A stretch of 64,000 bases of DNA, from assembly GCA_038244685.1 (NCBI GenBank), contig JBBRTD010000002.1:2924-66923 (forward strand), in the 5' to 3' direction. Below the pieces are notes generated by a model. The model ran no database searches and was not told where the DNA came from. It saw only the letters and a list, made by a program, of their open reading frames with translations. Of the stretch, positions 8,292 through 57,645 are shown piece after piece (position 1 is the stretch's first letter; the number at the start of each line of letters is the position of its first letter). The DNA comes from Minisyncoccia bacterium (GTDB lineage Bacteria; Patescibacteriota; Minisyncoccia; Phycocordibacterales; UBA9973). The position numbers and the translations under genes are program-made.

Positions 8292-8364
8292 AGATATATT
8301 TGTATATTATAACGCAATAATAAGGCATTCTATAAAAATATAGTTGCCTTAATTTTTATTTTTG

Positions 8365-8437
8365 TGGACCTTAGCGGACTCGGACCGCTTACCTCCTCAT
8401 TGCAAATGAGGCGCTCTACCAGATGAGCTAAAGGCCC
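8365..8437 (-). tRNA. tRNA-Ala (anticodon UGC)
   Basis: The reverse complement reads GGGCCTTTAGCTCATCTGGTAGAGCGCCTCATTTGCAATGAGGAGGTAAGCGGTCCGAGTCCGCTAAGGTCCA. It forms a cloverleaf with a G3:U70 pair (Ala identity element) and anticodon loop TTTGCAA. No CCA is encoded. Confidence 0.85.
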
Positions 8438-10019: not shown

Positions 10020-11459
10020 ATGGCCCTAAATAAACCTAACAAAATTCAGATAATTAAGTATGCTCCACCACCACCTGACCTTCCCACTCTTGGTAGAGTA
10101 GATCCTGGAGATGTGGCTTTTATCGGCCGAACAAACTATGTTGCTTCTTTAGAGGAAAAGAGGTTTGTTTTTGGTATTAAGCGTATCGATAGAAGACGAC
10201 ATATGTATATTATCGGCAAGTCAGGAGTAGGTAAATCTAAACTTCAAGAATTAATGATTCGTCAGGATATAGCTTATGGTCATGGTGTTTGTGTCATTGA
10301 TCCTCACGGAGAACTTATCGAAGATATATTAAATTTTATTCCAGAAGATCGCATTGAAGATGTTTGTATTATTGATCCTGGGGATGTAGAATATCCTTCT
10401 TCTTTTAATCCACTTTCAAACATTGATCCTACTTTTAAACATCAGCTTACTCAAGGATTGATAGAAGTTTTACGTAAACAATTTGGTTCGAATTGGTCTC
10501 CGCGTCTTGAGCACGTTTTTCGCTTTACCGTTCTTGCTTTGCTTGATTATCCTCATGCCACAATGCGTGGAATGATTTCAATGCTAACCGACCGAAATTA
10601 TCGTCAGAAGGTTGTTGAATATATACAAGATGATATGGTTAAACGTTTTTGGGCTATTGAATTTGCTGATTGGTCTGAGAAATTTGATACGGATGCGATT
10701 ATTCCTTTGGTGAATAAACTTGGGCAGTTTTTGTCTGATCCGATGCTTCGTAATATTTTTGGACAGAAAGAAAATAAAATTGATATTGAAAAATTAATGA
10801 ATGAACAAAAAATTCTTTTGATTAATCTTTCAAAGGGAAAAATAGGGGAGGAGAATTCCTCTTTCTTTGGGTCAATGTTTTTAACAAAAATTAAACAGGC
10901 TGGTATGGCCCGCGCCAAATTAGAGCCAAAAGACCGCGCTGACTTTTATCTTTATGTTGATGAATTTCAGAATATTGTGACAGATACATTTGAGAATATT
11001 CTTTCTGAAGCTCGTAAGTATGGATTGAACCTTGTTATTGCTCATCAATATATTGCTCAGCTTTTACCGAAAGTTCAACAGGCGGTACTTGGAAATGTCG
11101 GATCAATCGTTACTTTTCGTGTTGGCGGTGATGATGCCACTAAGTTGAAGCCAGAGTTTGCTCCAGTCTTTGATGTAAAAGATATGATTAACTTAGGTGT
11201 GGGAGAATTTTATATTAAAATGACAATAGATGGTGAAAGTTATGATCCATTTTCTGGAGAGACATTGCGTGTTCTTCCTGCGACACATCCATCTTATAGA
11301 CAAAAAGTTATCGATGCGTCACGCCGTAAATATTCTATTTCCTCTGGTGATGCTCAGAAGCTAATTATCGAAGAAGAAGCTACTATCATAAGATCAGCTC
11401 AAGAAAAAGCTGCTATTTCAGAAAATAAAGAAGAAAAAGAAAATCAGCCTCTTATTTAG
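10020..11459 (+). CDS. VirD4/TraG/TrwB-like P-loop ATPase (type IV secretion coupling-protein-like DNA-binding ATPase domain), with no N-terminal TM anchor
   Basis: Walker A IIGKSGVGKS, a DPHGE motif shortly after it, and Walker B YLYVDEFQN followed by AHQ. It is paralogous (~50% identity by eye) to the 13039-15243 protein. Confidence 0.55.
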   Translation: MALNKPNKIQIIKYAPPPPDLPTLGRVDPGDVAFIGRTNYVASLEEKRFVFGIKRIDRRRHMYIIGKSGVGKSKLQELMIRQDIAYGHGVCVIDPHGELIEDILNFIPEDRIEDVCIIDPGDVEYPSSFNPLSNIDPTFKHQLTQGLIEVLRKQFGSNWSPRLEHVFRFTVLALLDYPHATMRGMISMLTDRNYRQKVVEYIQDDMVKRFWAIEFADWSEKFDTDAIIPLVNKLGQFLSDPMLRNIFGQKENKIDIEKLMNEQKILLINLSKGKIGEENSSFFGSMFLTKIKQAGMARAKLEPKDRADFYLYVDEFQNIVTDTFENILSEARKYGLNLVIAHQYIAQLLPKVQQAVLGNVGSIVTFRVGGDDATKLKPEFAPVFDVKDMINLGVGEFYIKMTIDGESYDPFSGETLRVLPATHPSYRQKVIDASRRKYSISSGDAQKLIIEEEATIIRSAQEKAAISENKEEKENQPLI

Positions 11460-13038: not shown

Positions 13039-15243
13039 ATGGAAAAAGAAATTCCTCATAATCGTGACATAACTTATTTTGCTAAGACGAACTTTCGTAA
13101 TAGTAATGACATCTTTGGTATAAAAAGAAAAGATCGTCGCCAGCATATGTATATCCTCGGTAAGTCAGGTACTGGTAAATCCGTGCTCCTCTCTAATCTT
13201 ATTGTACAGAATATTCAAAACGGAGAAGGTGTCTGTGTGGTTGATCCTCATGGAGAGCTTGTCGAGGAAATTTTACATCTTATTCCAGAACATAGAACTA
13301 AGGATGTTATTTATTTTAATCCAGCAGATGCAGATTTTCATATTGGATTTAATGTTATACAGCTAGATGATCCTAAATATAAACACTTAGTAGCATCAGG
13401 ACTCATGGGAATTTTCACTAAGATTTGGGCGAATGCTTGGAGTTCTCGTATGGAATATATTTTGAATAATGCAATTCTTGCTCTTCTTGATACTCCAGGG
13501 ACAACACTATTGGGAATTCCTCGTCTTCTTGTCGACAAAGATTATCGTCAAATGATAATTGGAAATTTGAAAGACCCTGTTGTTAAAGCTTTCTGGGTCC
13601 ATGAATATGAACAATGGCGTGAACAGTTCCGAAATGAAGCCATTGCTCCTATTCAGAATAAAGTTGGTCAATTCCTTTCAACTTCAATCATTCGTAATGT
13701 TGTGGGTCAGCCAAAATCAACTATCGATATATTTAAGATAATGAATGAGGGTAAGATTTTTCTTGTAAACGTTTCAAAGGGACGTATTGGGGAAGATAAC
13801 TCTGCTCTTTTGGGTGGAATGATTATTACAAAAATTCAACTTGCCGCTATGGAACGTGTTCGTATTCCAGAGGATGAACGAAAAGACTTTTATCTTTATG
13901 TTGATGAATTTCAAAACTTTGCGACTGATGCCTTTGCCAATATTCTTTCTGAAGCTCGTAAGTATCGTCTAAATCTTACTGTCGCCCACCAGTACACAGC
14001 TCAGCTTGAAAATAAAGATGGTTCGAAGGTTCGTGATGCTGTTTTTGGCAACGTTGGAACAATGATAATCTTTCGCGTAGGAGCTGATGATGCAGACTTT
14101 TTGGAAAAAGAATTTGAGCCAGAATTTACAGCTCAAGATTTGGTTAATTTACCGAACTACAATATTTATTTAAAGCTTATGATTGATGGTATTACCAGCC
14201 GACCTTTTTCGGCAACAACCTTACCTCCAATGAAGGTAGATGCAACTTCCGGGGTAAAGGATAAAATTATAGAATCTTCTCGTAAACTTTATACAAGATC
14301 ACGTGAAGAAGTTGAAGGTGAGATATCTAGATGGAGTGGAATGCTTCAAGTTGGAGAAGGTGAAGCTAAGTATAAGGCTGACTGTTCAAATTGTGGTAAA
14401 TCTACGATGGTTCCTTTTGAACCTCAAGAAGGAAGACCTGTCTACTGTAAAGAATGTATGTTCAAAATTAAAAGTGGTGAACTTAAGCCGGAAACTGGTT
14501 TCGTTGCTTCTCGTTCTTCTCGCCAAGAAGAGAAGGTTTCGACTGCACCCTTGGCTGCCCTTGGTATCGAATTTCCTGTAACTGACATGAATTTTAGAGT
14601 TTCCAAGAATAAAGAACAAGCAAAAATATTAGTACAAAATAATCACGAAAATAGTAATCATTCTAATTATAATAAAAATAGTCATACGAATAATGTATCC
14701 AATAACCATGGTGATCTAAATAAAACTCCATATGTTAAACAAGAGAAGCGACACACTGGCCCGTCTCCACTTTTAAAAGGTTTATTGCAAAAGATTGGAA
14801 TAAGTAACGATAAAAAAGAAGTTCCAATTAAGGCAGAATCTATCGAAGTAAAAAAGGAAGTACCGGCTTCTATTTCTCTTTCTTCTCTTAAAAAAGAAGA
14901 GCCTAAAGAAGCTAGGAAAGATTTTGTTGTTGCAGTAAAGGAAGCCTCTGAGGAGAAAAAGGCTTCTCTTAAGGATTTACTTGCAAAGACAGCCAATCAT
15001 ATAAATCCGAACATTATTTCCAAAAAAGAAGAAGTAAAAATAGAAAATAATAAAGTAGAAGAATCTAAAAAAGTTGAGTCAGCTCCTGTTTTGGTCCCAG
15101 AAATAAAAGAGGAAATTATTGTTCCTAAAATAAATGAAGAGAAAATAAAACAAACAGATACTATTTCAGATTCGCTCTCTTGGCAAAAACGTAAAACAAA
15201 AAAAGAAGTTCCTGAGGATGTACTTCGCAAAATTTTAGAATAA
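13039..15243 (+). CDS. VirD4/TrwB-like P-loop ATPase paralog with a C-terminal CxxC...CxxC zinc ribbon and a ~250-aa Lys/Glu/Ser-rich low-complexity tail
   Basis: Walker A ILGKSGTGKS, a DPHGE motif, and Walker B YLYVDEFQN followed by AHQ. The zinc ribbon is CSNCGKSTMVPFEPQEGRPVYCKECMF. The tail is rich in K, E, S and N. Confidence 0.55.
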   Translation: MEKEIPHNRDITYFAKTNFRNSNDIFGIKRKDRRQHMYILGKSGTGKSVLLSNLIVQNIQNGEGVCVVDPHGELVEEILHLIPEHRTKDVIYFNPADADFHIGFNVIQLDDPKYKHLVASGLMGIFTKIWANAWSSRMEYILNNAILALLDTPGTTLLGIPRLLVDKDYRQMIIGNLKDPVVKAFWVHEYEQWREQFRNEAIAPIQNKVGQFLSTSIIRNVVGQPKSTIDIFKIMNEGKIFLVNVSKGRIGEDNSALLGGMIITKIQLAAMERVRIPEDERKDFYLYVDEFQNFATDAFANILSEARKYRLNLTVAHQYTAQLENKDGSKVRDAVFGNVGTMIIFRVGADDADFLEKEFEPEFTAQDLVNLPNYNIYLKLMIDGITSRPFSATTLPPMKVDATSGVKDKIIESSRKLYTRSREEVEGEISRWSGMLQVGEGEAKYKADCSNCGKSTMVPFEPQEGRPVYCKECMFKIKSGELKPETGFVASRSSRQEEKVSTAPLAALGIEFPVTDMNFRVSKNKEQAKILVQNNHENSNHSNYNKNSHTNNVSNNHGDLNKTPYVKQEKRHTGPSPLLKGLLQKIGISNDKKEVPIKAESIEVKKEVPASISLSSLKKEEPKEARKDFVVAVKEASEEKKASLKDLLAKTANHINPNIISKKEEVKIENNKVEESKKVESAPVLVPEIKEEIIVPKINEEKIKQTDTISDSLSWQKRKTKKEVPEDVLRKILE

Positions 15244-19022: not shown

Positions 19023-20537
19023 TTATTTTAATATTTTAATATCAGCCCCGATTGAGTTTAGTCTTTCGGCTATTTCTTCATAGCCTCGATTAATCATATA
19101 AACATTGCGAAGGATAGATGTGCCTGTTGCTCCAAGCATTCCAATAAGGATTATCATTGCGGGACGAAGAGCAGGGGGGCAGACAACTTGAGCTGATTTA
19201 AGGGGTGTTCCGCCTTGTATATAGACTCTATGAGGGTCAGCGAGAGTTATATTGGCCCCTAATCTATTAAGTTCAGTGAAATATATAGCTCGATTCTCAT
19301 ATAGCCAATCATGAATCATGGTCTGGCCTTTGGCTTTAATAGCGATAGGAACAAAGAACGGTAGATTATCCATATTTATTCCAGGATAAGGATTAGCATG
19401 AATTTTGTCTTCTAAAGCAGTTAATTTAGAAGGGAATATTTGTAAATCAACAAGATTTGTTTTTCCATTGTAAGATTTATAGCTTTTGAGTATTTTATAT
19501 TTTAAATTCATTCTCTTTAATTTTTCAAGTTCAAGAGAAAGGAAATCAATCGGACATCTATTAATGTTAAGCTCTGAATCAGTCGCAATTGCAGCTGAAA
19601 TAAACATCATTGATTCGATGGGGTCTTCACTGTTAGTATATTCAACATCCATATTAATATCTTTGACTCCGTGAACTACTAGAGTTGAAGTTCCAATCCC
19701 ATCGATTTGAACTCCAAGTGTTTCTAGAAAGAAGCAAATTTCTTGGACCATGTAATTAGCACTAGCAAATCTTATAGTTGTAGTGCCATCAATTTTTGAA
19801 ACGGCAGTTAGTATGTTCTCACAGGCTGTGTCTCCAGCTTCATACATTACAATATCAGCGGGCTTTAACTTTTTGCTTTCTATTTGGTATTCATCGTTGG
19901 TAGTTTTAATTTTTACCCCTAGATCTTCTAAGGCATAAGTATGTGCACTAATTGTTCTTTTCCCAAGCTTACATCCTGAAGCATGAGGAATAGAGAAAGA
20001 GGGAAGTAAATGAATAAGAGGGCCGATAAGCATTATGACTGAACGAGTTTTGATAGCAGACTCTACGTTCATTTTATCTAGAGAAAATTTGGTAGGTGGA
20101 GTAATTAAAACAGAATTATTATTTATCCACTTAACAGAGACCCCAATACTTTCAAGTATTTCAATAACTCGATAAACTTCTTCTATTCGAGCAATTCCAT
20201 GCAGGGTTGTTTTACCTTTATTTAAAAGAGAAGCACAGAGTAATCCGACTGCTCCATTCTTCGAGAAGTTTGTATCAATACTTCCGTGCAATTTATTTCC
20301 ACCCTTAATTTCAAAATCGATAGAGGAATTTATAGATACAATTTGATGTTCTAGTACTTTGCTTATTTTTGATAATAATTCTGTTGTAAAATTTTGTTCA
20401 CCTTTCTCCATGCGGGGAATAGAACTTTGGGATGTCTCTAATGCTTTAGCGAAGGCTTCTTGAGTCATACCTCGGCGCTCTCGAAGTTCCTTAATAAAGT
20501 AACCAATTTTTTGTTGCTCTGTTTGTTTTGATTTCAT
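19023..20537 (-). CDS. murA: UDP-N-acetylglucosamine 1-carboxyvinyltransferase (MurA) with an N-terminal XRE-type helix-turn-helix domain fused
   Basis: N-terminal ~60 aa (LRERRGMTQEAFAKALETSQSSIPRMEKGEQNFTTELLSKISKVL) is a Cro/C1-type HTH. The remainder has the EPSP-synthase fold, with the MurA active-site loop HASGCKLGKRTISAH (compare E. coli PGGCAIGARPVDLH, Cys115). Confidence 0.75.
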   Translation of the reverse strand: MKSKQTEQQKIGYFIKELRERRGMTQEAFAKALETSQSSIPRMEKGEQNFTTELLSKISKVLEHQIVSINSSIDFEIKGGNKLHGSIDTNFSKNGAVGLLCASLLNKGKTTLHGIARIEEVYRVIEILESIGVSVKWINNNSVLITPPTKFSLDKMNVESAIKTRSVIMLIGPLIHLLPSFSIPHASGCKLGKRTISAHTYALEDLGVKIKTTNDEYQIESKKLKPADIVMYEAGDTACENILTAVSKIDGTTTIRFASANYMVQEICFFLETLGVQIDGIGTSTLVVHGVKDINMDVEYTNSEDPIESMMFISAAIATDSELNINRCPIDFLSLELEKLKRMNLKYKILKSYKSYNGKTNLVDLQIFPSKLTALEDKIHANPYPGINMDNLPFFVPIAIKAKGQTMIHDWLYENRAIYFTELNRLGANITLADPHRVYIQGGTPLKSAQVVCPPALRPAMIILIGMLGATGTSILRNVYMINRGYEEIAERLNSIGADIKILK

Positions 20538-21696: not shown

Positions 21697-21778
21697 GCCG
21701 GAGTGGCGGAATTGGTATACGCGCGCGACTCAAAATCGCGTCTCGCAAGGGATGGAGGTTCAAGTCCTCTCTCCGGCA
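21697..21778 (+). tRNA. tRNA-Leu (anticodon CAA), long variable arm
   Basis: GCCGGAGTGGCGGAATTGGTATACGCGCGCGACTCAAAATCGCGTCTCGCAAGGGATGGAGGTTCAAGTCCTCTCTCCGGCA forms a class II cloverleaf with anticodon loop CTCAAAA. Confidence 0.85.
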
Positions 21779-21779
21779 C

Positions 21780-22913: not shown

Positions 22914-23001
22914 TTTCTCTAATTTTGGTCTGGTGTATTGTGGTATATAACTATATCTAATATATTTGCATTTTAAAGTGTTTTATAGTATTGTATACAT
23001 T

Positions 23002-23190: not shown

Positions 23191-23216
23191 TATGCTATAG
23201 TGTATACGTTATTTAA

Positions 23217-23288
23217 GGGCGATTAGTTTAGTGGTAGAACGAAAGTTTCCAAAACTTTTGGTGGGGGTTCGATTCCTCCATCGCCCGC
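23217..23288 (+). tRNA. tRNA-Trp (anticodon CCA)
   Basis: GGGCGATTAGTTTAGTGGTAGAACGAAAGTTTCCAAAACTTTTGGTGGGGGTTCGATTCCTCCATCGCCCG forms a cloverleaf with anticodon loop TTCCAAA. Confidence 0.85.
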
Positions 23289-23317
23289 ATTAGAAAAACA
23301 GCGTAAGCTGTTTTTCT

Positions 23318-23488
23318 GGGCGATAGCACATGAACTGCTTCATGTGTGCGGAGAAAGCGAAAGACTTTTCTGTGATTTGTTTACAAATCAAGAAAAGTAC
23401 CTGACGATGTAATCGGAGATAAGTGTACTCACGGTCCTCCATTATATGTCTGACCGAAAGTGTAATCACGTTTCCTCCATCGCCCGCA
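23318..23488 (+). pseudogene. tRNA-Trp-derived chimeric fragment: the exact first 9 nt (gggcgatag) and exact last 17 nt (ttcctccatcgcccgca) of tRNA-Trp, separated by ~145 nt of unrelated sequence
   Basis: Direct-repeat comparison with the tRNA-Trp gene at 23217-23288. The D, anticodon and T arms are missing. Confidence 0.6.
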
Positions 23489-23526
23489 AATTTTAAAAAA
23501 TATATATAGTAGAGTATACTTAAATT

Positions 23527-24093
23527 ATGAATAAGCTATATCTTATAGGAGGGTCTCCTCGTTGTGGAAAAACTACAATTTTTAATTCTTTTATAAACAA
23601 AAAACCAATGATTGCGATTCCAACTGATGCGATTAGGGCTGGAGTACGATTTTTAAACAAACACAGCCGTATTAACTTTTCTGAAGATGAGATTGAAAAT
23701 AATTTGCCTTGGGAAATGGTGGTAGGGTTAATTCATCGGTATGACCATAAAAATATTCCACTTATAGTTGAAGGTGTTGTAATTACTCCAGAGCGAGTCA
23801 AAAACTTAAAGCTAAAGAATCTTGAATTAAGAGTAGTATTTGTGGGTTTTACTGGAGACTCTCATATAGAAAAAATAATAAAACATGGGCAAATTGAGAA
23901 AGATTGGGTTTACGACCATATAACAAAGGAGAATGGAAATGACACAGAAATAAGAAAAATGTTCAAAAATATTCAAGAAGAAAACAAACTCGTTAAAGAA
24001 AAAGCTGATGAGTATGGTTATAGTTTCTTCTCTCCTGAGAATCTATCTTTTGATGTATATTGCAATTCAGTTGTGGAATACCTTTTAAATTAA
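23527..24093 (+). CDS. P-loop NTPase, small kinase-like (adenylate-kinase/zeta-toxin-like fold); function unknown
   Basis: Walker A GGSPRCGKTT at the N-terminus. 188 aa. Confidence 0.45.
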   Translation: MNKLYLIGGSPRCGKTTIFNSFINKKPMIAIPTDAIRAGVRFLNKHSRINFSEDEIENNLPWEMVVGLIHRYDHKNIPLIVEGVVITPERVKNLKLKNLELRVVFVGFTGDSHIEKIIKHGQIEKDWVYDHITKENGNDTEIRKMFKNIQEENKLVKEKADEYGYSFFSPENLSFDVYCNSVVEYLLN

Positions 24094-34826: not shown

Positions 34827-36884
34827 TTGGAAAATAGCCCTTTTTATGTCATTATTAAGGAATATATGGAATCATCAAAAAATAAAAAGACATCTGTAAA
34901 GTCATTAAAAAGTAATGTTAATGAAAGAGGGTTACGTACTGTGGTAAAAAATCTTCTCAAGCAAGATAAAAGACTTTGGACTTCGGAAGGTAAGTTGATT
35001 GAAAATAAATTGATTGAATTTGTACAAAAAGATGATGAAAATATTATTAAACTTCTATTAAGTGATTCCTTAACAAAAGATGCTTTTTTCCAAAAAATTT
35101 CTTCAATTTTTGTATTTAAAAAAGATGACTTTATTAACTTTGAAACGATGAGTGAGTTTTTGAATGGTTCTTATACTAATTATAGTAAACATATAGGATT
35201 GGCAAATAATTACTCTTTATTAAAAAATGCCGGTGAAGTAGTTCTGAATTTTCCATACAAGGATTGTTTTTTAGAAGGAGGGCAAGAAAAAGTAAGTGAA
35301 GGGAGAGATGAAATATTTTACAATAAAATTCTTGCAAGAGAAGAAATAAATAGACTTGAAGAAGAAAAAGTTTTTACGAACTGGATTAAATATACTGAAA
35401 AAGGGGGGAAAAAGGTGGATTCATTTGACCATAAAAAAGACAATCTTATTTTAAGAGGAAATAATTTATTAGCTTTATATTCATTGCTTCCAAAATATAG
35501 AGGACAAATAAATTTAATTTATATTGACCCACCATACAATACTGGAACAGATGATTTTAATTACAATGATAATTTTAATCATTCTAGTTGGCTAGTATTT
35601 ATGAAGAATAGATTGGAGGTAGCAAAAAAGTTATTAAGAGATGACGGTGTTATTTTTGTTCAGTGTGACGACCACGAACAAGCTTATTTGAAGGTTGTAA
35701 TGGATGAAATTTTTAATGGTGGATTTATAAATAGTATTGCTGTAAAAATGAGTGAGTTGTCTGGGACAAAAATGGCTCATTATGATAAAAAATTACCTAA
35801 AATAAAAGAATATTTATTAGTATATAAAAAAGTAACGTTTAAATTAAGAGATGTTAGAATAATAAAAACTGAGTGGGATGACGAATATAATTTGTATCTC
35901 GAGAATTTTGATGATAATTTATTAGATTTAATTACCGAGTCGGATGAAAATAAAATTGATGAAGTAAATAAAAAACTATTAAATGTAAAAATTTTAGGGA
36001 TAAAAGAAGCATTTAATAAATATAAAAATAAAAATGAAGATTTTGATGATTTTAGATTTAGGAATATAAACTTTATTGTTAGAACATCGCCATCATCCAG
36101 TGTAAAAAAAATTGCTGATATTCTTAATATCAAAAATCAAATTGTTTATGCATTGCTTTCAAAAAGAGACAAAAATATTATTATAATTCGTACAGATTAT
36201 AATAAAGCAGTAAAAGACCCAAGAATACAGATTGTCTTTGCTCGAGATTCTTTTGAACAAAAAATAGGCGATATGTGGACAGATATAAATACTACAGGTT
36301 TACATACTGAGGGGGGAGTTACTTTAGAAGGAGGAAAAAAACCCGAGAAATTACTTAACAGAATTATTGAAATGAGCACAAAAATTGGTGATATTGTTTT
36401 AGATTATCATTTAGGAAGTGGAACGACCTGTGCTGTTGCTCATAAGCTGGGTCGTAAATATATAGGTATTGAGCAATTAGACTATGGAAAAGATGACTCA
36501 GTTATAAGGTTGAACAATGTTATTAAGGGAGACAAATCAGGCATATCAGGGTTAGCTGATTGGAAAGGAGGAGGGTCATTTGTTTATGCTGAACTTGCAC
36601 AATGGAATGAAGAATATATCCAAGAAATAAAGAAAGCCAAAACAGTTAAAGATTTGACTAAAATCTATGAAAAAATGATTAAAGAAGCATTCTTTGTTTA
36701 TACTTTTGACCAATCAAAATGGAATAATAAAAAATTTGAAGAGCTTACAATTGATAACCAAAAGAAAATTCTTTTCGAGCTTCTTAATATGAATCATTTA
36801 TATATAAATTATAAAGATATAGAGGACGCGACTTATAAAATTTCTAAAGAAGATATAAAACTCAATAAAAATTTCTATGAGTAG
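34827..36884 (+). CDS. mod: Type III restriction-modification system methyltransferase (Mod), N6-adenine, beta-class
   Basis: Motif IV IYIDPPYNTG occurs before motif I (DYHLGSGTTCAVAHKLGRKYIGIE), with a target-recognition region in between. The 8-bp overlap with the downstream res gene is typical of Type III mod-res operons. Confidence 0.85.
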   Translation: MENSPFYVIIKEYMESSKNKKTSVKSLKSNVNERGLRTVVKNLLKQDKRLWTSEGKLIENKLIEFVQKDDENIIKLLLSDSLTKDAFFQKISSIFVFKKDDFINFETMSEFLNGSYTNYSKHIGLANNYSLLKNAGEVVLNFPYKDCFLEGGQEKVSEGRDEIFYNKILAREEINRLEEEKVFTNWIKYTEKGGKKVDSFDHKKDNLILRGNNLLALYSLLPKYRGQINLIYIDPPYNTGTDDFNYNDNFNHSSWLVFMKNRLEVAKKLLRDDGVIFVQCDDHEQAYLKVVMDEIFNGGFINSIAVKMSELSGTKMAHYDKKLPKIKEYLLVYKKVTFKLRDVRIIKTEWDDEYNLYLENFDDNLLDLITESDENKIDEVNKKLLNVKILGIKEAFNKYKNKNEDFDDFRFRNINFIVRTSPSSSVKKIADILNIKNQIVYALLSKRDKNIIIIRTDYNKAVKDPRIQIVFARDSFEQKIGDMWTDINTTGLHTEGGVTLEGGKKPEKLLNRIIEMSTKIGDIVLDYHLGSGTTCAVAHKLGRKYIGIEQLDYGKDDSVIRLNNVIKGDKSGISGLADWKGGGSFVYAELAQWNEEYIQEIKKAKTVKDLTKIYEKMIKEAFFVYTFDQSKWNNKKFEELTIDNQKKILFELLNMNHLYINYKDIEDATYKISKEDIKLNKNFYE

Positions 36885-39495
36885 CACTTCTTTATATCAA
36901 AAATATGATATTCGTGTAGAAGATGGGGTTATAGATGTTAGTTCTATACCATCTTTTATTTCAGATAATCTCCACTCTCGTGTTGTTTTACGACCTTATC
37001 AAGAAGAGGCACTTTCTCGTTTTATTTATTATTTTGAAAAAGATAAAAATAAACTTACTCCGGTACATCTACTTTTCAATATGGCCACAGGGACTGGTAA
37101 AACAATTATAATGTCTAGTGTAATGCTTCATCTTTATACAAAAGGATATCGAAATTTTGTATTTTTTGTTGATAAGGACAATATTGTACAAAAAACAATT
37201 GAAAATTTTACAGACAACACAAGCCCTAAATATAGTTTTTCACCATCAATAGTAATAGATGGAAAACGTGTTTTGGTTCGTAAGGTAGAGAATTTTTCAG
37301 ATAGTGATAATAAAGCAATAAATATCAAATTTAGTACTCTTGCAGGGCTACACAGTGAAATTACCTTTCCAAAAGAAGAAGGGTTATCTATGGACGATTT
37401 TAAGCTCAGAAAAACTGTATTTTTATCAGATGAAGCCCATCACGTTAATGCTTCAACAAAAAAGAAAGAATTAGATGAAGAGGAAAAATCTTGGGAATAT
37501 ACTGTAATGAAATTACTTAATTCAAATCTTGAAAATGTTTTATTGGAGTTTACTGCAACAATCGATGAAAGACACGAAAAAATAGTTGAGAAATATTCTG
37601 ATAAAATAATTTTTAAATATGACCTAAAAAGATATATAGCTGATAAATATTCTAAAGATATTTTCTTATATAAAACTCCAGAGGGGATAGATGACCGTAT
37701 TTTACATGCTCTTATTCTCTCTCAGTATCGTCGTAAGTTAGCGGGGAAATATGGGATGTCCTTTAAACCAGTTGTACTTATAAAATCTAAAACAAAAAAA
37801 GAAAGTGAAAATACTGAAATACTTTTCTATAATCTATTACAAAAATTGAAAGTAAATGATATAGAACGCATAGAAAAACAAGTAAAAGTAAATATAGATA
37901 ATAAGGTAGCAGTTAAAGCTTTTGATTTTTTTAAAAAAGAAGGTATTTCTTTTGCTGAACTTATTAAAGAACTCCAGATTGAATTTTCAAAAGAAAGAAG
38001 AATACAAATGAATGATGATAGTCAAAAAGTTGCGCAGTCTAAGCTCTTGAATTCTCTTGAAGAAGAGTCTAACAAAATTCGTGTTATTTTTCAGGTAAAA
38101 AAACTTGATGAGGGTTGGGATGTATTAAATCTTTTTGATATTGTCAGAGCATATGAGACACGAGATACTGGTACTATAACTACGTCCGAAGCTCAGCTTG
38201 TGGGAAGAGGGGCGAGATATTATCCATTTATTATTGAACCAAGCCAAGAAAAAGATAAAAGAAAATATGACGAAGAGCCAGAAAATGAACTTAGGGTTTT
38301 AGAACAACTTTATTATCATTGTCAGAATGACCATAGATATATCTCTGAAATCAAAAATGCTCTTCAAAAAACCGGAATAGATTTAGATAATAAAAAGATG
38401 ATTGAACTTAAATTAAAAGATTCTTTCAAAAAATCTTTATTTTATACCCAAGCATTTGTATATACTAATAAGCAACAAAAAAAAGATAGGAAAAATATTA
38501 AATCATTAAAAGATATAGATTTGGACAAATTAACACATACAGATTCTCTTTCAACTGGAGTATCTGGAGTAGAAGGTATTTTTGCAAATAGTACCGAAAA
38601 GACCTCATCAAATAATGTTAAAATAGTTAGCGAAAAAATTTCTGTAAAAGAAATACCTATTCACATAACGAGAACTGCTATTGATACTTTTCCATTTTTT
38701 GATTTTGCTAATTTAAAAACATATTTACCCAACATAAAAAGTCGTGATGAATTTATCACATCTGACTCATATGCCGGAAACATTCGCATTGAAATTGATG
38801 GCCCAGAAGACAGGATAAAGAATATAAAAAATGATAATGAATATTTATACTCAATTTTAATAAGAAAAGTATTTGAAGATTTGAAAAATAAGATTGTATA
38901 TAACTCTTTTGAATATGAAGGGACTGATGAATTTATGCCTTACGAGATTAACAAACTTATTAAAGATAAGATTATTCAAATTGAAGTAAATAATGAAAGT
39001 GATAAAGAAAACGGCAAAGCTATGGGTGGAACTGAAACAGAGATTCATCTTGATTTATCAAATATTGATTGGTATTCACATACTGAGAATTATGGAACAT
39101 CTGAAGAAAAGTACCTCATAAAGGCAATATTGGGATTTGTAGATTCTATCAAGAGTAAATACGACAATGTTTATCTTATTCGTAACGAGAGACAAGTAAA
39201 GATATTTGATACCAAGGGGCGTGCTATTGAACCTGATTTCTTGTTATATACTATAAAAAAGAATCAGAAAGACACCTCTTACTATCAATTATTTATTGAA
39301 CCAAAGGGAGCACACTTATTGAAAGAAGATTCTTGGAAGGAGGATTTTTTGAAAGGATTAAACAAAAAATATAAAGGAAAATCTAACTTAATTGAAACAC
39401 CAGAATATTATATATTTGGTTTGCCTTTCTTTAATGAACAAAAAACAAAACGAGAATTTGAAACTGATTTAAAAAAGAAACTCCAGCTAAAATAA
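36877..39495 (+). CDS. res: Type III restriction enzyme Res subunit (SF2 helicase + C-terminal endonuclease)
   Basis: Walker A MATGTGKT, DEAH box LSDEAHH, helicase motif VI QLVGRGAR. 872 aa. Translationally coupled to mod. Confidence 0.85.
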   Translation: MSSTSLYQKYDIRVEDGVIDVSSIPSFISDNLHSRVVLRPYQEEALSRFIYYFEKDKNKLTPVHLLFNMATGTGKTIIMSSVMLHLYTKGYRNFVFFVDKDNIVQKTIENFTDNTSPKYSFSPSIVIDGKRVLVRKVENFSDSDNKAINIKFSTLAGLHSEITFPKEEGLSMDDFKLRKTVFLSDEAHHVNASTKKKELDEEEKSWEYTVMKLLNSNLENVLLEFTATIDERHEKIVEKYSDKIIFKYDLKRYIADKYSKDIFLYKTPEGIDDRILHALILSQYRRKLAGKYGMSFKPVVLIKSKTKKESENTEILFYNLLQKLKVNDIERIEKQVKVNIDNKVAVKAFDFFKKEGISFAELIKELQIEFSKERRIQMNDDSQKVAQSKLLNSLEEESNKIRVIFQVKKLDEGWDVLNLFDIVRAYETRDTGTITTSEAQLVGRGARYYPFIIEPSQEKDKRKYDEEPENELRVLEQLYYHCQNDHRYISEIKNALQKTGIDLDNKKMIELKLKDSFKKSLFYTQAFVYTNKQQKKDRKNIKSLKDIDLDKLTHTDSLSTGVSGVEGIFANSTEKTSSNNVKIVSEKISVKEIPIHITRTAIDTFPFFDFANLKTYLPNIKSRDEFITSDSYAGNIRIEIDGPEDRIKNIKNDNEYLYSILIRKVFEDLKNKIVYNSFEYEGTDEFMPYEINKLIKDKIIQIEVNNESDKENGKAMGGTETEIHLDLSNIDWYSHTENYGTSEEKYLIKAILGFVDSIKSKYDNVYLIRNERQVKIFDTKGRAIEPDFLLYTIKKNQKDTSYYQLFIEPKGAHLLKEDSWKEDFLKGLNKKYKGKSNLIETPEYYIFGLPFFNEQKTKREFETDLKKKLQLK

Positions 39496-40795: not shown

Positions 40796-40958
40796 TAGAT
40801 ATCAGGAGTATGGCGAGAGCACTGGCTCAACGACCCATCAGCAACCCTTAGAGATAAGAAGGTGCTAAATCCAGCCAGATGATACACAAGTATTATCATG
40901 GAAAGATAAGACTAGTCATCTGTATCTTTCCTCTTATTAGAGGAATTTTTTAATTTAA
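40796..40958 (+). promoter_or_regulatory. SAM-I (S-box) riboswitch with intrinsic terminator, in the leader of metK
   Basis: gATATCAGGAG...GGCGAGAGCACTGGCTCAACGACCCATCAGCAACC...AAGGTGCTAAATCCAGCC...AGATGATAc matches the S-box core blocks (ATCAAGAG / GG.GGAGGGACUGGCCCGAUGAA.CCC.GCAACC / GGUGC.AAUUCC.GCAG / AGAUGAG). The P1 helix is TATCA/TGATA. A terminator (ttcctct tatt agaggaa + tttttt) lies at 40928-40951, just before metK. Confidence 0.7.
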
Positions 40959-40966
40959 TAACGTAT

Positions 40967-41932
40967 ATGAAAAAGACAGCAGAGTGTGTGAGTCCTATGC
41001 ATCCAGATAAGATCTGTGACTATATTGCAGATTGCATTTTAGATGCATATTTAGAAGGTGATAAAGAAAGTCGTTGTGCCATAGAAGTAATGGGAGGGCA
41101 CGGATTAATAACTATAAACGGGGAAGTAACCTCAAAAGCTAATCCAGATATAGAAAAAGTTGTACAAGGTTTAGTTGGGACCAACTTTAAAATAATTTCT
41201 AATATTGTTTTACAGAGCCCACAAATTGCTCAAGGTGTTGATATTGGTGGTGCTGGTGATCAAGGAATAATGAAAGGTTATGCTACTAACGAAACACCAG
41301 ACTTGTTACCACTTGAATATGTATGGGCGAGAAGTTTATGTAATTATATTTACAAGAAGCATCCATATGATGGGAAGACTCAAGTTACTATTATTGATGG
41401 ACGTATAGATACTATCGTTGCAAGTTTTCAAAATGTTTCAAAAGAAGTACTCCATAGTCTAGTTCTTGATTGGTATGGTGAGTATGCTGCACAATCTAGA
41501 AAGATATTCCAATTTAATATTTTTGTTAATCCTGCTGGGGATTGGACTCAGGGAGGATTTGATGCGGATACTGGATTATCTGGAAGGAAACTTATTATAG
41601 ATAACTATGGACCAGAAATAACTATCGGTGGAGGTTCTTTCTCTGGTAAGGATTATACAAAGGTGGACCGCTCAGGTGCATATATGGCAAGAAAGATTGC
41701 TGTTGATTTATTAAAGAAACATAATGCAAAAGAAGTTTATACAAAACTTGCATATGCTATTGGTCAACCAGAACCAGTAATGGCTGTAGCAGTTATAGAT
41801 GGAGTTGAAAGTGAAATTACTGGTTATGACTTAACTCCAAGAGGAATATATAAACATTTAAAATTAGATCAAGTTGAATTTAAAAAAACTTGTAACTGGG
41901 GTCACTTTGGAAGAGATTTTGAATGGGAGTAG
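40967..41932 (+). CDS. metK: S-adenosylmethionine synthetase (compact, 321 aa)
   Basis: MHPDKICDYIADCILDAYL (compare GHPDKIADQISDAVLDAIL), GAGDQGIMKGYATNET, GGGSFSGKDYTKVDRSGAYMAR, and C-terminal GHFGRDFEWE. Confidence 0.85.
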   Translation: MKKTAECVSPMHPDKICDYIADCILDAYLEGDKESRCAIEVMGGHGLITINGEVTSKANPDIEKVVQGLVGTNFKIISNIVLQSPQIAQGVDIGGAGDQGIMKGYATNETPDLLPLEYVWARSLCNYIYKKHPYDGKTQVTIIDGRIDTIVASFQNVSKEVLHSLVLDWYGEYAAQSRKIFQFNIFVNPAGDWTQGGFDADTGLSGRKLIIDNYGPEITIGGGSFSGKDYTKVDRSGAYMARKIAVDLLKKHNAKEVYTKLAYAIGQPEPVMAVAVIDGVESEITGYDLTPRGIYKHLKLDQVEFKKTCNWGHFGRDFEWE

Positions 41933-54778: not shown

Positions 54779-54849
54779 GCAGGATTGGTTTAGTGGTAGA
54801 ATGCGACCTTCCCAAGGTTGAGGCACGAGTTCGATTCTCGTATCCCGCA
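54779..54849 (+). tRNA. tRNA-Gly (anticodon CCC)
   Basis: GCAGGATTGGTTTAGTGGTAGAATGCGACCTTCCCAAGGTTGAGGCACGAGTTCGATTCTCGTATCCCGCA forms a cloverleaf with anticodon loop TTCCCAA and an A3-C70 mismatch in the acceptor stem. Confidence 0.7.
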
Positions 54850-54927
54850 CATATATAAAAACTTTTGAAAAGTTATACTGAAGCCTATGCTCTTCAATCA
54901 GAGTAATCGCGGTCTCGTATTGCGCAC

Positions 54928-55309: not shown

Positions 55310-55381
55310 GCCCTCGTAGTTCAATGGATAGAACAGTTCCGTCCTAAGGAATAGATGTAGGTTCGATTCCCGCCGGGGGCA
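55310..55381 (+). tRNA. tRNA-Arg (anticodon CCU)
   Basis: GCCCTCGTAGTTCAATGGATAGAACAGTTCCGTCCTAAGGAATAGATGTAGGTTCGATTCCCGCCGGGGGCA. The acceptor is GCCCTCG/CGGGGGC, the anticodon loop GTCCTAA, and there is one T-stem mismatch. Confidence 0.6.
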
Positions 55382-55415
55382 CAATATATTTTATTATTTA
55401 GTAATTATAAAAATT

Positions 55416-57396: not shown

Positions 57397-57469
57397 GCCT
57401 AGATAGCTCAGTTGGTAGAGCGCTCCCCTGAAGAGGGATAGGTCCCCAGTTCAAATCTGGGTCTAGGCA
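57397..57469 (+). tRNA. tRNA-Phe (anticodon GAA)
   Basis: GCCTAGATAGCTCAGTTGGTAGAGCGCTCCCCTGAAGAGGGATAGGTCCCCAGTTCAAATCTGGGTCTAGGCA with anticodon loop CTGAAGA. Confidence 0.85.
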
Positions 57470-57645
57470 CAAAAAAATAATGGAATCACCTTCAGGTAGA
57501 TAGCCAGTTCAAATCTCTAGTCTAGGCACAAAAAAATAATGGAATCACCTTCAGGTAGATAGCCAGTTCAAATCTCTAGTCTAGGCACAAAAAAATAATG
57601 GAATCACCTTCAGTTAGATAGCCAGTTCAAATCTCTAGTCTAGGC
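57470..57645 (+). repeat. Three tandem 58-59-bp units (caaaaaaataatggaatcaccttcaggtagatagccagttcaaatctctagtctaggca). Each ends in a degenerate copy of the tRNA-Phe T-arm/acceptor 3' end; a partial fourth unit follows.
   Basis: The units at 57470-57528, 57529-57587 and 57588-57645 are near-identical (unit 3 has one fewer A and g->t). ccagttcaaatctctagtctaggca versus the tRNA 3' end cccagttcaaatctgggtctaggca. Confidence 0.85.

Follow-up and report, generated by a model that had tools for sequence, protein, structure and literature searches.

A conserved tRNA-adjacent element with tRNA-mimicking ends that may specify a structured RNA in Patescibacteria

Directly after the spacer hairpin 3′ of a tRNA-Trp gene, the window (the whole 64-kb stretch of DNA that was analyzed) contains a 171-nt element, positions 23318 to 23488, which, judged from the sequences compared here, is a real conserved module absent from Rfam 15 and no random scar. 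We see about an even chance that this stretch is an ORF-less, cassette-like element specifying a structured RNA with tRNA-mimicking ends. Homologous elements of 117 to 123 nt follow tRNA-Trp, tRNA-Gly(UCC), or tRNA-Gly(GCC) in other Patescibacteria contigs; they are always positioned directly 3′ of the tRNA gene and share its orientation, and the element core represents a separate conserved fold that is also found behind tRNA-Gly. A second copy was not found in the window, where an unfiltered covariance model detects 23318-23443 only and the next matches have E values of at least 0.15. The features of the locus are listed in Table 1.

Table 1. Features of the tRNA-Trp locus and the downstream element, in window positions
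Feature	Position	Strand	Remarks
Promoter-like box TATAGTGTATAC, 5′ of tRNA-Trp	23196-23207	+	putative promoter role
tRNA-Trp, anticodon CCA	23217-23288	+	ARAGORN; Rfam RF00005, 68.8 bits
Direct repeat copy 1, tRNA C56 to CA, CGATTCCTCCATCGCCCGCA	23270-23289	+	
Spacer hairpin AGAAAAACAGC-GTAA-GCTGTTTTTCT, terminator-like	23292-23317	+	perfect 11-nt inverted repeat
P1 5′ strand GGGCGAU	23318-23324	+	pairs with acceptor 3′ strand copy 23479-23485 (MFE folds)
P2 hairpin, 9 bp, invariant AA-CUGC-UU top	23326-23347	+	4/9 pairs compensatory; 100% of cells paired
P5 5′ strand GGAGAAAGCG, within motif GGAG(G)AAUCGAA	23350-23359	+	pairs with 23469-23478
P3 hairpin ACUUUUCU/AGAAAAGU, inner hairpin 23373-23390	23364-23398	+	
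P4 hairpin CGAU-GUA-AUCG, conserved GUA triloop	23405-23415	+	3 pairs compensatory
Clade-specific expansion, common to window and L073	23416-23468	+	
Direct repeat copy 2 (displaced tRNA tail), CGTTTCCTCCATCGCCCGCA	23469-23488	+	

The tRNA-Trp gene that a preliminary description had placed at this locus was recovered by both ARAGORN and Rfam, which agree on its extent and anticodon. It lacks an encoded CCA; its discriminator N73 is a G and is followed by CA, and N73 followed by CA is the 3′ context of all six tRNA genes of the window and likewise of the element tail. The 17-mer TTCCTCCATCGCCCGCA, reported as repeated, occurs exactly twice in the 64 kb (23273-23289 and 23472-23488), and the statement that such a repeat is unlikely by chance was borne out by 100 shuffles, over which no match was expected even with two mismatches allowed. 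The true repeat is 20 nt long with one mismatch, the two copies being spaced 199 nt from start to start; copy 2 is composed of the P5 3′ strand CGUUUCCUCC, the P1 3′ strand AUCGCCC, and then G and CA. The beginning of the tRNA also reappears as described, with GGGCGATAG at 23318-23326 compared to GGGCGATTAG at the start of the tRNA, a match of 7 nt plus AG, and the 8-bp hairpin reported for the interior is formed by CACATGAA and TTCATGTG at 23327-23334 and 23339-23346. The terminator-like hairpin behind the tRNA is present as well, although its extent is slightly larger than the 23294-23316 originally claimed.

The arms of this spacer hairpin comprise 11 nt each (23292-23302/23307-23317), with an A-tract and a T-tract within the stem. 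It is kept in locus L003, where the loop is UUCG, and in L073, and it was not called by a terminator scanner. A terminator-like hairpin with a U-run separates the tRNA from the insert in the window, L003, L073, and L071, the last of which carries an unrelated insert (type B, see below); the position of this hairpin ahead of the insert in all four loci is a difficulty for an RNA model. A box of the TATAGTATAC type was found 12 to 20 nt 5′ of tRNA-Trp also in L003, L006, and L066. Between tRNA-Trp and the insert no promoter-like site was found in the window, L003, L073, or L071, so that transcription of the element would depend on read-through, and the box upstream of the tRNA is the sole candidate promoter for a putative tRNA-plus-element unit. 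The next gene of the window possesses a separate promoter-like site at 23492-23520. ORFs adjoining the element encode the ribosomal protein L33, a P-loop protein, and MiaA. The nearest relatives of the L33 protein are those of Candidatus Nomurabacteria/Paceibacteria, and the neighborhood HTH-MurA, MurB, Alr, L33, tRNA-Trp, MiaA recurs in contigs encoding an identical L33. For the 188-aa P-loop ORF, no relative beyond the P-loop was found in Pfam, NCBIfam, or PDB; it is absent beside the other element copies and unrelated to the 188-aa ORF of L036.

When four full copies of the element were folded independently, one common minimum free energy (MFE) architecture, P1-P2-P5(P3,P4), was obtained, in which P1 is followed by one A, P2, two nucleotides, and P5, the latter enclosing AAAGR, P3, YACCU, and P4 in this order. 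The fold contains two three-way junctions, and for the window copy (23318-23488) its MFE is −61.1 kcal/mol, corresponding to a z-score of −5.7 versus shuffled sequences. In P5, GGAG(G)AAUCG pairs with CGAUUCCUCC, which reproduces the 3′ half of the T-loop and the 3′ strand of the T-stem. Because both the 5′ end of the element and the internal GGAG(G)AAUCG are complementary to the tail, the latter is locked in a continuous P1+P5 helix, which in the predicted structure corresponds to an acceptor stem stacked on an extended T stem. The position at which P2 (9 bp, loop CUGC) departs from this helix is that of the D and anticodon arms in a tRNA, and the P3/P4 junction replaces the T loop. The invariance of the P2 loop and of the GUA triloop suggests a protein or tertiary contact at these positions.

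Compensatory changes were evaluated in a structural alignment of five sequences, which was hand-made and fitted to the structure; on this small set, 97.1% of 175 cells across 39 pairs were standard-paired and 10 of the 39 pairs showed changes on both sides. None of 500 shuffles attained any of the observed measures, and sliding the partners by 1 to 3 columns lowered the fraction of paired cells to 36 to 52%. P2, P3, and P4 contain no broken cell, and both the outer and the inner pairs of P3 covary, with three to four pair types. RNAalifold run on a plain MAFFT alignment mispaired P3 through one-column shifts and was set aside in favor of the hand alignment, which was gap-padded with N so that MAFFT kept it unchanged. 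A covariance model built from four copies recovered two copies on which it had not been trained, L073 with 64 bits and L034 with 58 bits. The covariance score amounts to 113.7 bits on the tRNA-sense strand versus 19.9 bits on the opposite strand, and every wobble pair reads G-U on the sense strand, both of which indicate that the folding strand is the one transcribed with the tRNA.

The copy of the window differs from the short forms by the expansion listed in Table 1, which adds about 52 nt. The second tail motif of the preliminary description, TCCTCCAT, was found within it at 23436-23443, where it represents a decayed extra tail copy, UCCUCCAU; a 13-nt internal duplication, AAGTGTAcTCACG/AAGTGTAaTCACG at 23421-23433/23458-23470, is also present. 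The covariance model match stops at 23443, the 3′ end of the model aligning to this first, decayed tail copy, and closure of P1 in the window copy is possible only with the terminal tail copy 23469-23488. By its sequence, the expansion looks like a partial duplication of the unit, comparable to the full tandem units in L073.

Homologues were collected by look-ups of L33 variants and by pattern scans and comprise five to six sequence variants only. The patterns used for the GTDB genomes and JGI metagenomes demanded an exact core motif, and divergent members were therefore missed. In GTDB, whose representative set is without the source genome, 16 chance matches and one true match (L053) were obtained; the JGI metagenomes contributed two sequence variants, and two patterns run on IMG/VR returned nothing or one chance match inside a coding region. 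The L003-type element of 123 nt lies behind tRNA-Trp in eight contigs with identical L33, including L048; it starts with GGGCGATAG, ends with TCCTCCATCGCCCGCA, and has an interior homologous to, and shorter than, that of the window. In these contigs, the promoter-tRNA-hairpin-element unit is inverted as a whole relative to L33, which indicates that it moves as a block. Further copies were found behind tRNA-Gly(UCC) in L046 and L047 and, as a partial copy whose 5′ pairing is not clear-cut, behind tRNA-Trp in L034. L053 derives from a metagenome-assembled genome labeled Saccharibacteria by its record title; its upstream tRNA, which runs past the end of the available sequence, has the anticodon loop UUGCCAA (GCC). 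L073 contains tandem units, the distal one with a degenerate end. The 21-nt P2 is identical in L003, L046, and L053, and such identity behind three different tRNAs suggests recent transfer. A described equivalent was not found in the literature on CPR bacteria or in surveys of noncoding RNAs.

The ends of the element track the upstream tRNA. In each copy, the final 16 to 21 nt are identical to the tail of the tRNA that it follows, beginning near C56 in the T-loop and including N73 and CA: the tail copy reads CG(A/T)TTCCTCCATCGCCCGCA behind tRNA-Trp, CGATTCTCCCATCCCGCAC behind tRNA-Gly(UCC), and CGATTCTCCTATCCCGCACA behind tRNA-Gly(GCC). The exact repeat block begins at tRNA position 56 in four of the seven junctions and at positions 58 to 60 in the others, with near-matches back to 56, and it stops 1 to 3 nt past the discriminator, at positions 74 to 76. 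P1 compensates with the host tRNA, being GGGCGAU:AUCGCCC for Trp versus GGGAU or GGGGU:AUCCC for Gly. In L046, where the 5′ pairing is weak (5 bp), a relic of the Trp-type 5′ end, GGCGAUA, is located just 5′ of the new GGGAU, which suggests that this copy descends from one linked to tRNA-Trp and that its pairing was repaired afterwards. Over the tRNA segment U54-C65, the antisense match of the motif GGAG(G)AAUCGAA extends to all 12 positions in L073, to 11 in L003, and to 10 in the window.

Several known classes of RNA were considered and rejected. With Rfam 15, at gathering as well as permissive thresholds, the window and five related loci gave only tRNA matches and none to the element. A tRNA (RF00005) is not contained in 23318-23488, which yields neither an ARAGORN call nor a match to the Rfam tRNA model even at E ≤ 10; only the acceptor strands and the T-arm 3′ half are present, in agreement with the earlier remark that D, anticodon, and T arms are missing from the interior of about 145 nt. 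Intron-containing and permuted tRNAs were likewise rejected, and a transfer-messenger RNA (tmRNA) was discarded on the basis of a negative ARAGORN result, a G-C pair at 3-70, the missing T arm, and the lack of a reading frame conserved across copies. A group I intron in a tRNA gene has a 5′ exon ending in U, an intron ending in G, and a P3-P9 catalytic core. At the element, the second C56 is preceded by A or C and never by G, the interior of 100 to 150 nt has no catalytic core, and no Rfam intron match was found. Hammerhead or other ribozyme cores are not matched by Rfam, and visual inspection of the junction strands (AAAGR, YACCU, none) shows no fit to them. The element is not coding, as no frame stays open in all copies and the differing lengths of the P3 loop (18, 19, and 20 nt) break any frame. 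Nor is it a leader for one particular gene, since the downstream genes differ at every locus, for example the P-loop ORF in the window, a convergent L33 gene in L003, and a dehydrogenase-like ORF in L046.

In the structured-RNA interpretation, the element would occupy the classical T-loop/3′-end insertion site of a tRNA gene and would be transcribed by read-through from the tRNA-Trp promoter. RNase P would cut between 23317 and 23318, freeing the 5′ end at G23318, and the 3′ end would be trimmed after G23486 and receive CCA as a tRNA does, resulting in a stable small RNA. Cutting and CCA-tailing in tRNA style are predicted because the acceptor/T-like helix is followed by G-CA, like every tRNA gene of the window. 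The direct repeats of 17 to 20 nt may allow the unit to be lost precisely, duplicated in tandem, and exchanged, which would explain its patchy distribution. The suggestion of a tRNA-derived noncoding RNA gene in the preliminary description fits these data better than that of a scar, with the qualification that only the two ends are tRNA derived.

By analogy, the closest counterpart is the RttR (rtT) RNA of E. coli (RF00391), the distal product of the tyrT-tyrV operon, the function of which is likewise poorly understood (10.1101/2024.07.17.603846). On NC_000913, RttR begins 7 nt after tyrV and comprises 171 nt, the last 19 of which are the tRNA-Tyr tail AATCCTTCCCCCACCACCA; it is part of a 178-bp repeat present in three copies, and an internal GGGGAAGGAU pairs with AUCCUUCCCC of the tail. 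The element shares with RttR the same-strand position directly 3′ of a tRNA, the copy of that tRNA's own tail at its end, the internal segment pairing with the tail copy (P5 and P1 in all copies of the element), and the possibility of tandem units. It differs from RttR, which has no sequence or covariance-model similarity to it; membership in RF00391 was rejected for want of homology in the window and five related loci at E ≤ 1 to 10. RttR also lacks the closure of P1 by a tRNA-like 5′ strand and the two three-way junctions, and it overlaps the small ORF tpr, whereas the element has no conserved ORF. Moreover, RttR is tied to a single tRNA (Tyr, in enterobacteria) and is not known to occur behind others, whereas the element occurs behind tRNA-Trp and two tRNA-Gly species with its ends adapted to each. 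The element is thus classed as a tRNA-trailer RNA or as a mini-insert bounded by a tRNA tail, outside RF00391.

The tRNA-Trp site itself behaves as an insertion hotspot. Among close relatives, whose L33 proteins are 84 to 100% identical, it occurs in five states, and the comparison of orthologous loci proposed earlier thus returned the element in relatives, an empty site, and other inserts. L006 lacks the element behind an identical tRNA-Trp sequence, and the resemblance of its post-tRNA flank to the post-element flank of L003 identifies it as an empty site; L074 and others are empty as well. L071 and L072 contain the unrelated type-B insert, a structured 140-nt sequence (z = −5.2) that opens with a T-arm antisense copy, GGAGGAUUCGAACC, and closes with 21 nt copied exactly from the tail. 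L073 holds a chimeric or tandem array, and L066 a 306-nt cassette encoding only a 77-aa GIY-YIG nuclease-domain protein and ending in a 17-nt tail copy. Among the 76 tRNA instances of all loci examined, tail repeats are present only at these insert-bearing sites; no tail repeat was found within 6 kb of the other tRNAs of the window and loci. Since a protein-coding cassette has identical repeat boundaries, the repeat reflects insertion or exchange at the DNA level and not only an RNA need. The occurrence of the same tail repeat, from about position 56, on unrelated inserts (GIY-YIG in L066, type B in L071) is a further difficulty for an RNA model, the repeat itself being better explained by DNA-level insertion than by RNA function.

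An intact tRNA followed by an insert and a displaced 3′ fragment from the T-loop onward is the mark of site-specific integration into tRNA genes (PMC4383910), and this att-type geometry, a regenerated tRNA with a displaced 3′ fragment from the T-loop, had rightly been recognized in the preliminary description. It gives some weight to the possible, if somewhat unlikely, interpretation of the element as a non-autonomous DNA cassette whose recombinase resides elsewhere, whose fold acts in single-stranded DNA, and for which any RNA is incidental. The direct repeats are of the integrase-island form, as are tandem arrays and empty sites, and the T-loop is a recognized crossover sublocation next to the anticodon loop and the T/acceptor junction (PMC4383910). 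Three unrelated inserts (type A, type B, and the GIY-YIG ORF) and an empty site share one tRNA-Trp position, the core occurs behind three different tRNAs with the same 21-nt P2, and the Trp-type relic in L046, the tandem units in L073, and the terminator-like hairpin ahead of several copies all suit a mobile cassette. Against it, no integrase or recombinase was found in or beside any copy, nor among the 30 window ORFs scanned with Pfam. The attL/attR repeats by which genomic islands and prophages in tRNA genes are recognized (Islander definition) are present; islands, however, span kilobases and carry their own integrase, whereas the insert of the element is 120 to 200 nt long (199 nt in the window) and holds neither an ORF nor an integrase, and island ends normally lack a conserved fold pairing with the att copy such as is found here. 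GNRA and UUCG loops and G-U wobbles confined to the tRNA-sense strand are typical of RNA, the constant orientation and immediate adjacency to the tRNA fit cotranscription, and a circular or excised form, which would have the junction P4-tail-spacer (…GTGTAATCA-CGATTCCTCCATCGCCCGCA-TTAGAAAAAC…), was not observed.

In such a cassette, P1+P5 might rebuild a duplex copy of the tRNA gene 3′ end, in the manner of an integron attC site or the attP(+) site of CTX phage, a comparison that is just as tentative as the cassette itself. Those units are small and sometimes ORF-less, occur in arrays, and have sites with imperfect inverted repeats and variable terminal structures that are formed by intramolecular pairing. 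Integron cassette clusters without an adjacent integrase exist. The R″/R′ consensus, RYYYAAC/GTTRRRY, is nevertheless absent from the element, whose junction is GGTT|CGATT (core GTT|CGAT) with P1 GGGCGAT/ATCGCCC, so that it was rejected as an attC site; no link to IntI or Xer is apparent, and the target of the element is a tRNA gene, not attI or dif. The resemblance is purely architectural. We regard it as unlikely that Patescibacteria possess an integron-like cassette system docking at the T-loop/3′ end of tRNA genes, with the recombinase encoded elsewhere and a folded tail mimicking the target. As part of that scenario, the ORF-less (types A and B) and GIY-YIG cassettes would each bring or regenerate the tRNA tail, and the ORF-less ones would fold as single strands with the tail copy paired, this fold being the substrate on which the recombinase acts.

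A still lower probability is assigned to a cis-acting module, either a 3′ trailer steering termination or 3′ processing of the tRNA or a leader or sensor for the downstream gene; as an example of this sort, the element might be a tRNA-like decoy read by the CCA-adding enzyme. In a cofold of tRNA, spacer, and element, base pairing is possible between GGGCGAU of the element and the 3′ strand of the tRNA itself, bridging the spacer hairpin; the element lies within the tRNA 3′ trailer in every copy, and in L053 it stops 13 nt before an ORF of the PolyA_pol/CCA-adding type. These points are countered by the diversity of downstream genes, by the many close relatives that process the same tRNA-Trp without the element (L006, L074), and by the promoter-like site that the next window gene has of its own.

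That the element is a chargeable tRNA-like RNA (a mini-tmRNA or acceptor mimic), which would carry Trp or Gly for a purpose other than ordinary decoding, is considered very improbable. In the window, L003, and L073, its acceptor stem and discriminator are those of tRNA-Trp; in L046 and L053 they are Gly-like. Yet it has no anticodon arm, T loop, ARAGORN tmRNA call, or conserved tag-like ORF, and the imperfect P1 of L046, L053, and L034 does not point to selection on identity elements for aminoacylation. An acceptor stem stacked on a T stem is the minimal shape for RNase P, RNase Z, and the CCA-adding enzyme. The tRNA-like domain (TLD) of tmRNA, mascRNA, and bacterial YrlA resemble the element in that an acceptor-like stem formed by their 5′ and 3′ ends is stacked on a T-stem-like helix; the element differs in that a T loop, an analogue of the D loop, and a G3:U70 pair are missing, and it is devoid of the tag frame and pseudoknots of tmRNA and of the Ro-binding stem of YrlA. 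Furthermore, its tail is a literal copy of the neighboring tRNA tail and not a mimic that evolved independently.

Least credible of all is a nonfunctional remnant, either a decayed tandem duplicate of tRNA-Trp or the att scar of an excised or deleted island: the tRNA-derived ends around a middle without tRNA arms, the decayed extra tail and internal duplication of the window copy, and the degenerate end of the distal L073 unit would suit it, but the interior is conserved across species and behind three host tRNAs, with compensatory changes in every helix (10 pairs, none broken in P2 to P4), independent MFE folds concur (z = −5.7), and a 5′ strand complementary to the tail of a new tRNA would not evolve again in a scar, so that conservation and covariation refute this reading as far as sequence data allow, and with it the scar or random remnant proposed in the preliminary description, which had itself named a conserved structure in related genomes as the observation that would speak against it.

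Whichever of the two leading interpretations applies, RNA or cassette, an annotation issue arises, as island finders will call an att scar at such loci and tRNA finders will ignore the element. If the cassette reading is true, tRNA genes would serve as docking sites for recombinase-less miniature mobile units whose fold mimics the target, a form of site-specific mobility that would be new. Should the RNA reading be true, the element would represent a new class of structured RNA in the very reduced genomes of CPR/Patescibacteria, one that borrows its identity for maturation from whichever tRNA precedes it. The long-unexplained arrangement of RttR would thereby be generalized to a distant phylum, and a second study system for tRNA-trailer RNAs would become available.

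The tRNA-Trp site occupied by the window's element carries a single-gene cassette in the related locus L066. This cassette is bounded by tRNA-Trp on one side and on the other by 17 nt that repeat the tail of the tRNA, and may represent a homing-type or cassette-type insertion. The type-B insert of loci L071 and L072 likewise lies behind tRNA-Trp but is a different insert from the window's element, and it was not detected by covariance model R1, which was built from four copies of the element. Specifically, the type-B insert is separated from tRNA-Trp by a clear terminator hairpin, and starts with GGAGGATTCGAACC, which is antisense to tRNA G52-C65; its last 21 nt reproduce the tRNA tail exactly, and its folding z is -5.2. 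In the tandem array of locus L073, the end of one unit is followed by a hairpin and then by a type-A unit, the kind found in the window, joined to a type-B-like distal portion bearing the degenerate tail TTCCTCATTAAACCGCAG. An ORF approximately 275 nt from this array, located beyond the L33 gene on the far side, gave a weak match to the rve (integrase core) domain.

Coordinates of features in the window and in the loci compared with it
Feature	Location	Strand	Remarks
Six tRNA genes	window 8364-8437, 21697-21779, 23217-23288, 54779-54850, 55310-55382, 57397-57470		
TATAGT..GTATAC / TATAGTATACT box	window 22975-22998, 23196-23207, 23505-23520		recurring
VirD4/TraG-like coupling-ATPase ORFs (two) and type III restriction-modification pair	window 10020-11459, 13039-15243, 34827-39495		pair: Mod methylase and Res helicase
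MurA-like (EPSP_synthase fold) ORF	window 19023-20537	-	N-terminal HTH fusion
188-aa ORF	window 23527-24093	+	P-loop (GGSPRCGKTT); between element and miaA
SAM riboswitch	window 40796-40909	+	RF00162, 50.4 bits
S-adenosylmethionine synthetase gene	window 40967-41932	+	directly 3' of riboswitch
Element copy and downstream ORF	L053:1-429	-	
GIY-YIG-domain ORF	L066:1714-1947	- (of locus)	77 aa; Pfam E = 1.4e-16
Single-gene cassette	roughly L066 1690-2010		306 nt; GIY-YIG ORF as its gene
Type-B structured insert	L071:547-770, L072:712-784		~140 nt; behind tRNA-Trp
Tandem array; far-side ORF	L073:1660-2038; L073:108-1385	- (array)	
RttR (tRNA-trailer RNA)	L070, E. coli NC_000913.3 1287066-1287236		

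The recurring box closely precedes L33, tRNA-Trp, and the 188-aa ORF in the window and is also present 5' of tRNA-Trp in L003, L006, and L066; it is probably a local -10-type promoter element. Pfam, NCBIfam, and PDB gave no relative of the 188-aa ORF beyond its P-loop, and its position is found only in the window genome. The HTH-MurA fusion is kept in all related loci. The riboswitch ahead of the S-adenosylmethionine synthetase gene is an ordinary arrangement.

In the minimum-energy fold of E. coli RttR, the tRNA-Tyr tail copy is paired with an internal GGGGAAGGAU, a predicted continuous helix resembling an acceptor/T stem, of which no description was found in the literature examined. The window's six tRNA genes all lack an encoded CCA and have CA plus an A or T immediately after the discriminator base, suggesting a shared 3'-processing context. 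In L053, a related locus with a copy of the element, 13 nt separate the element's end from a PolyA_pol head-domain ORF (E = 1.9e-29), i.e., a member of the CCA-adding enzyme/poly(A) polymerase family. The placement of a CCA-less tRNA-like RNA just 5' of a PolyA_pol gene could be regulatory or a coincidence.
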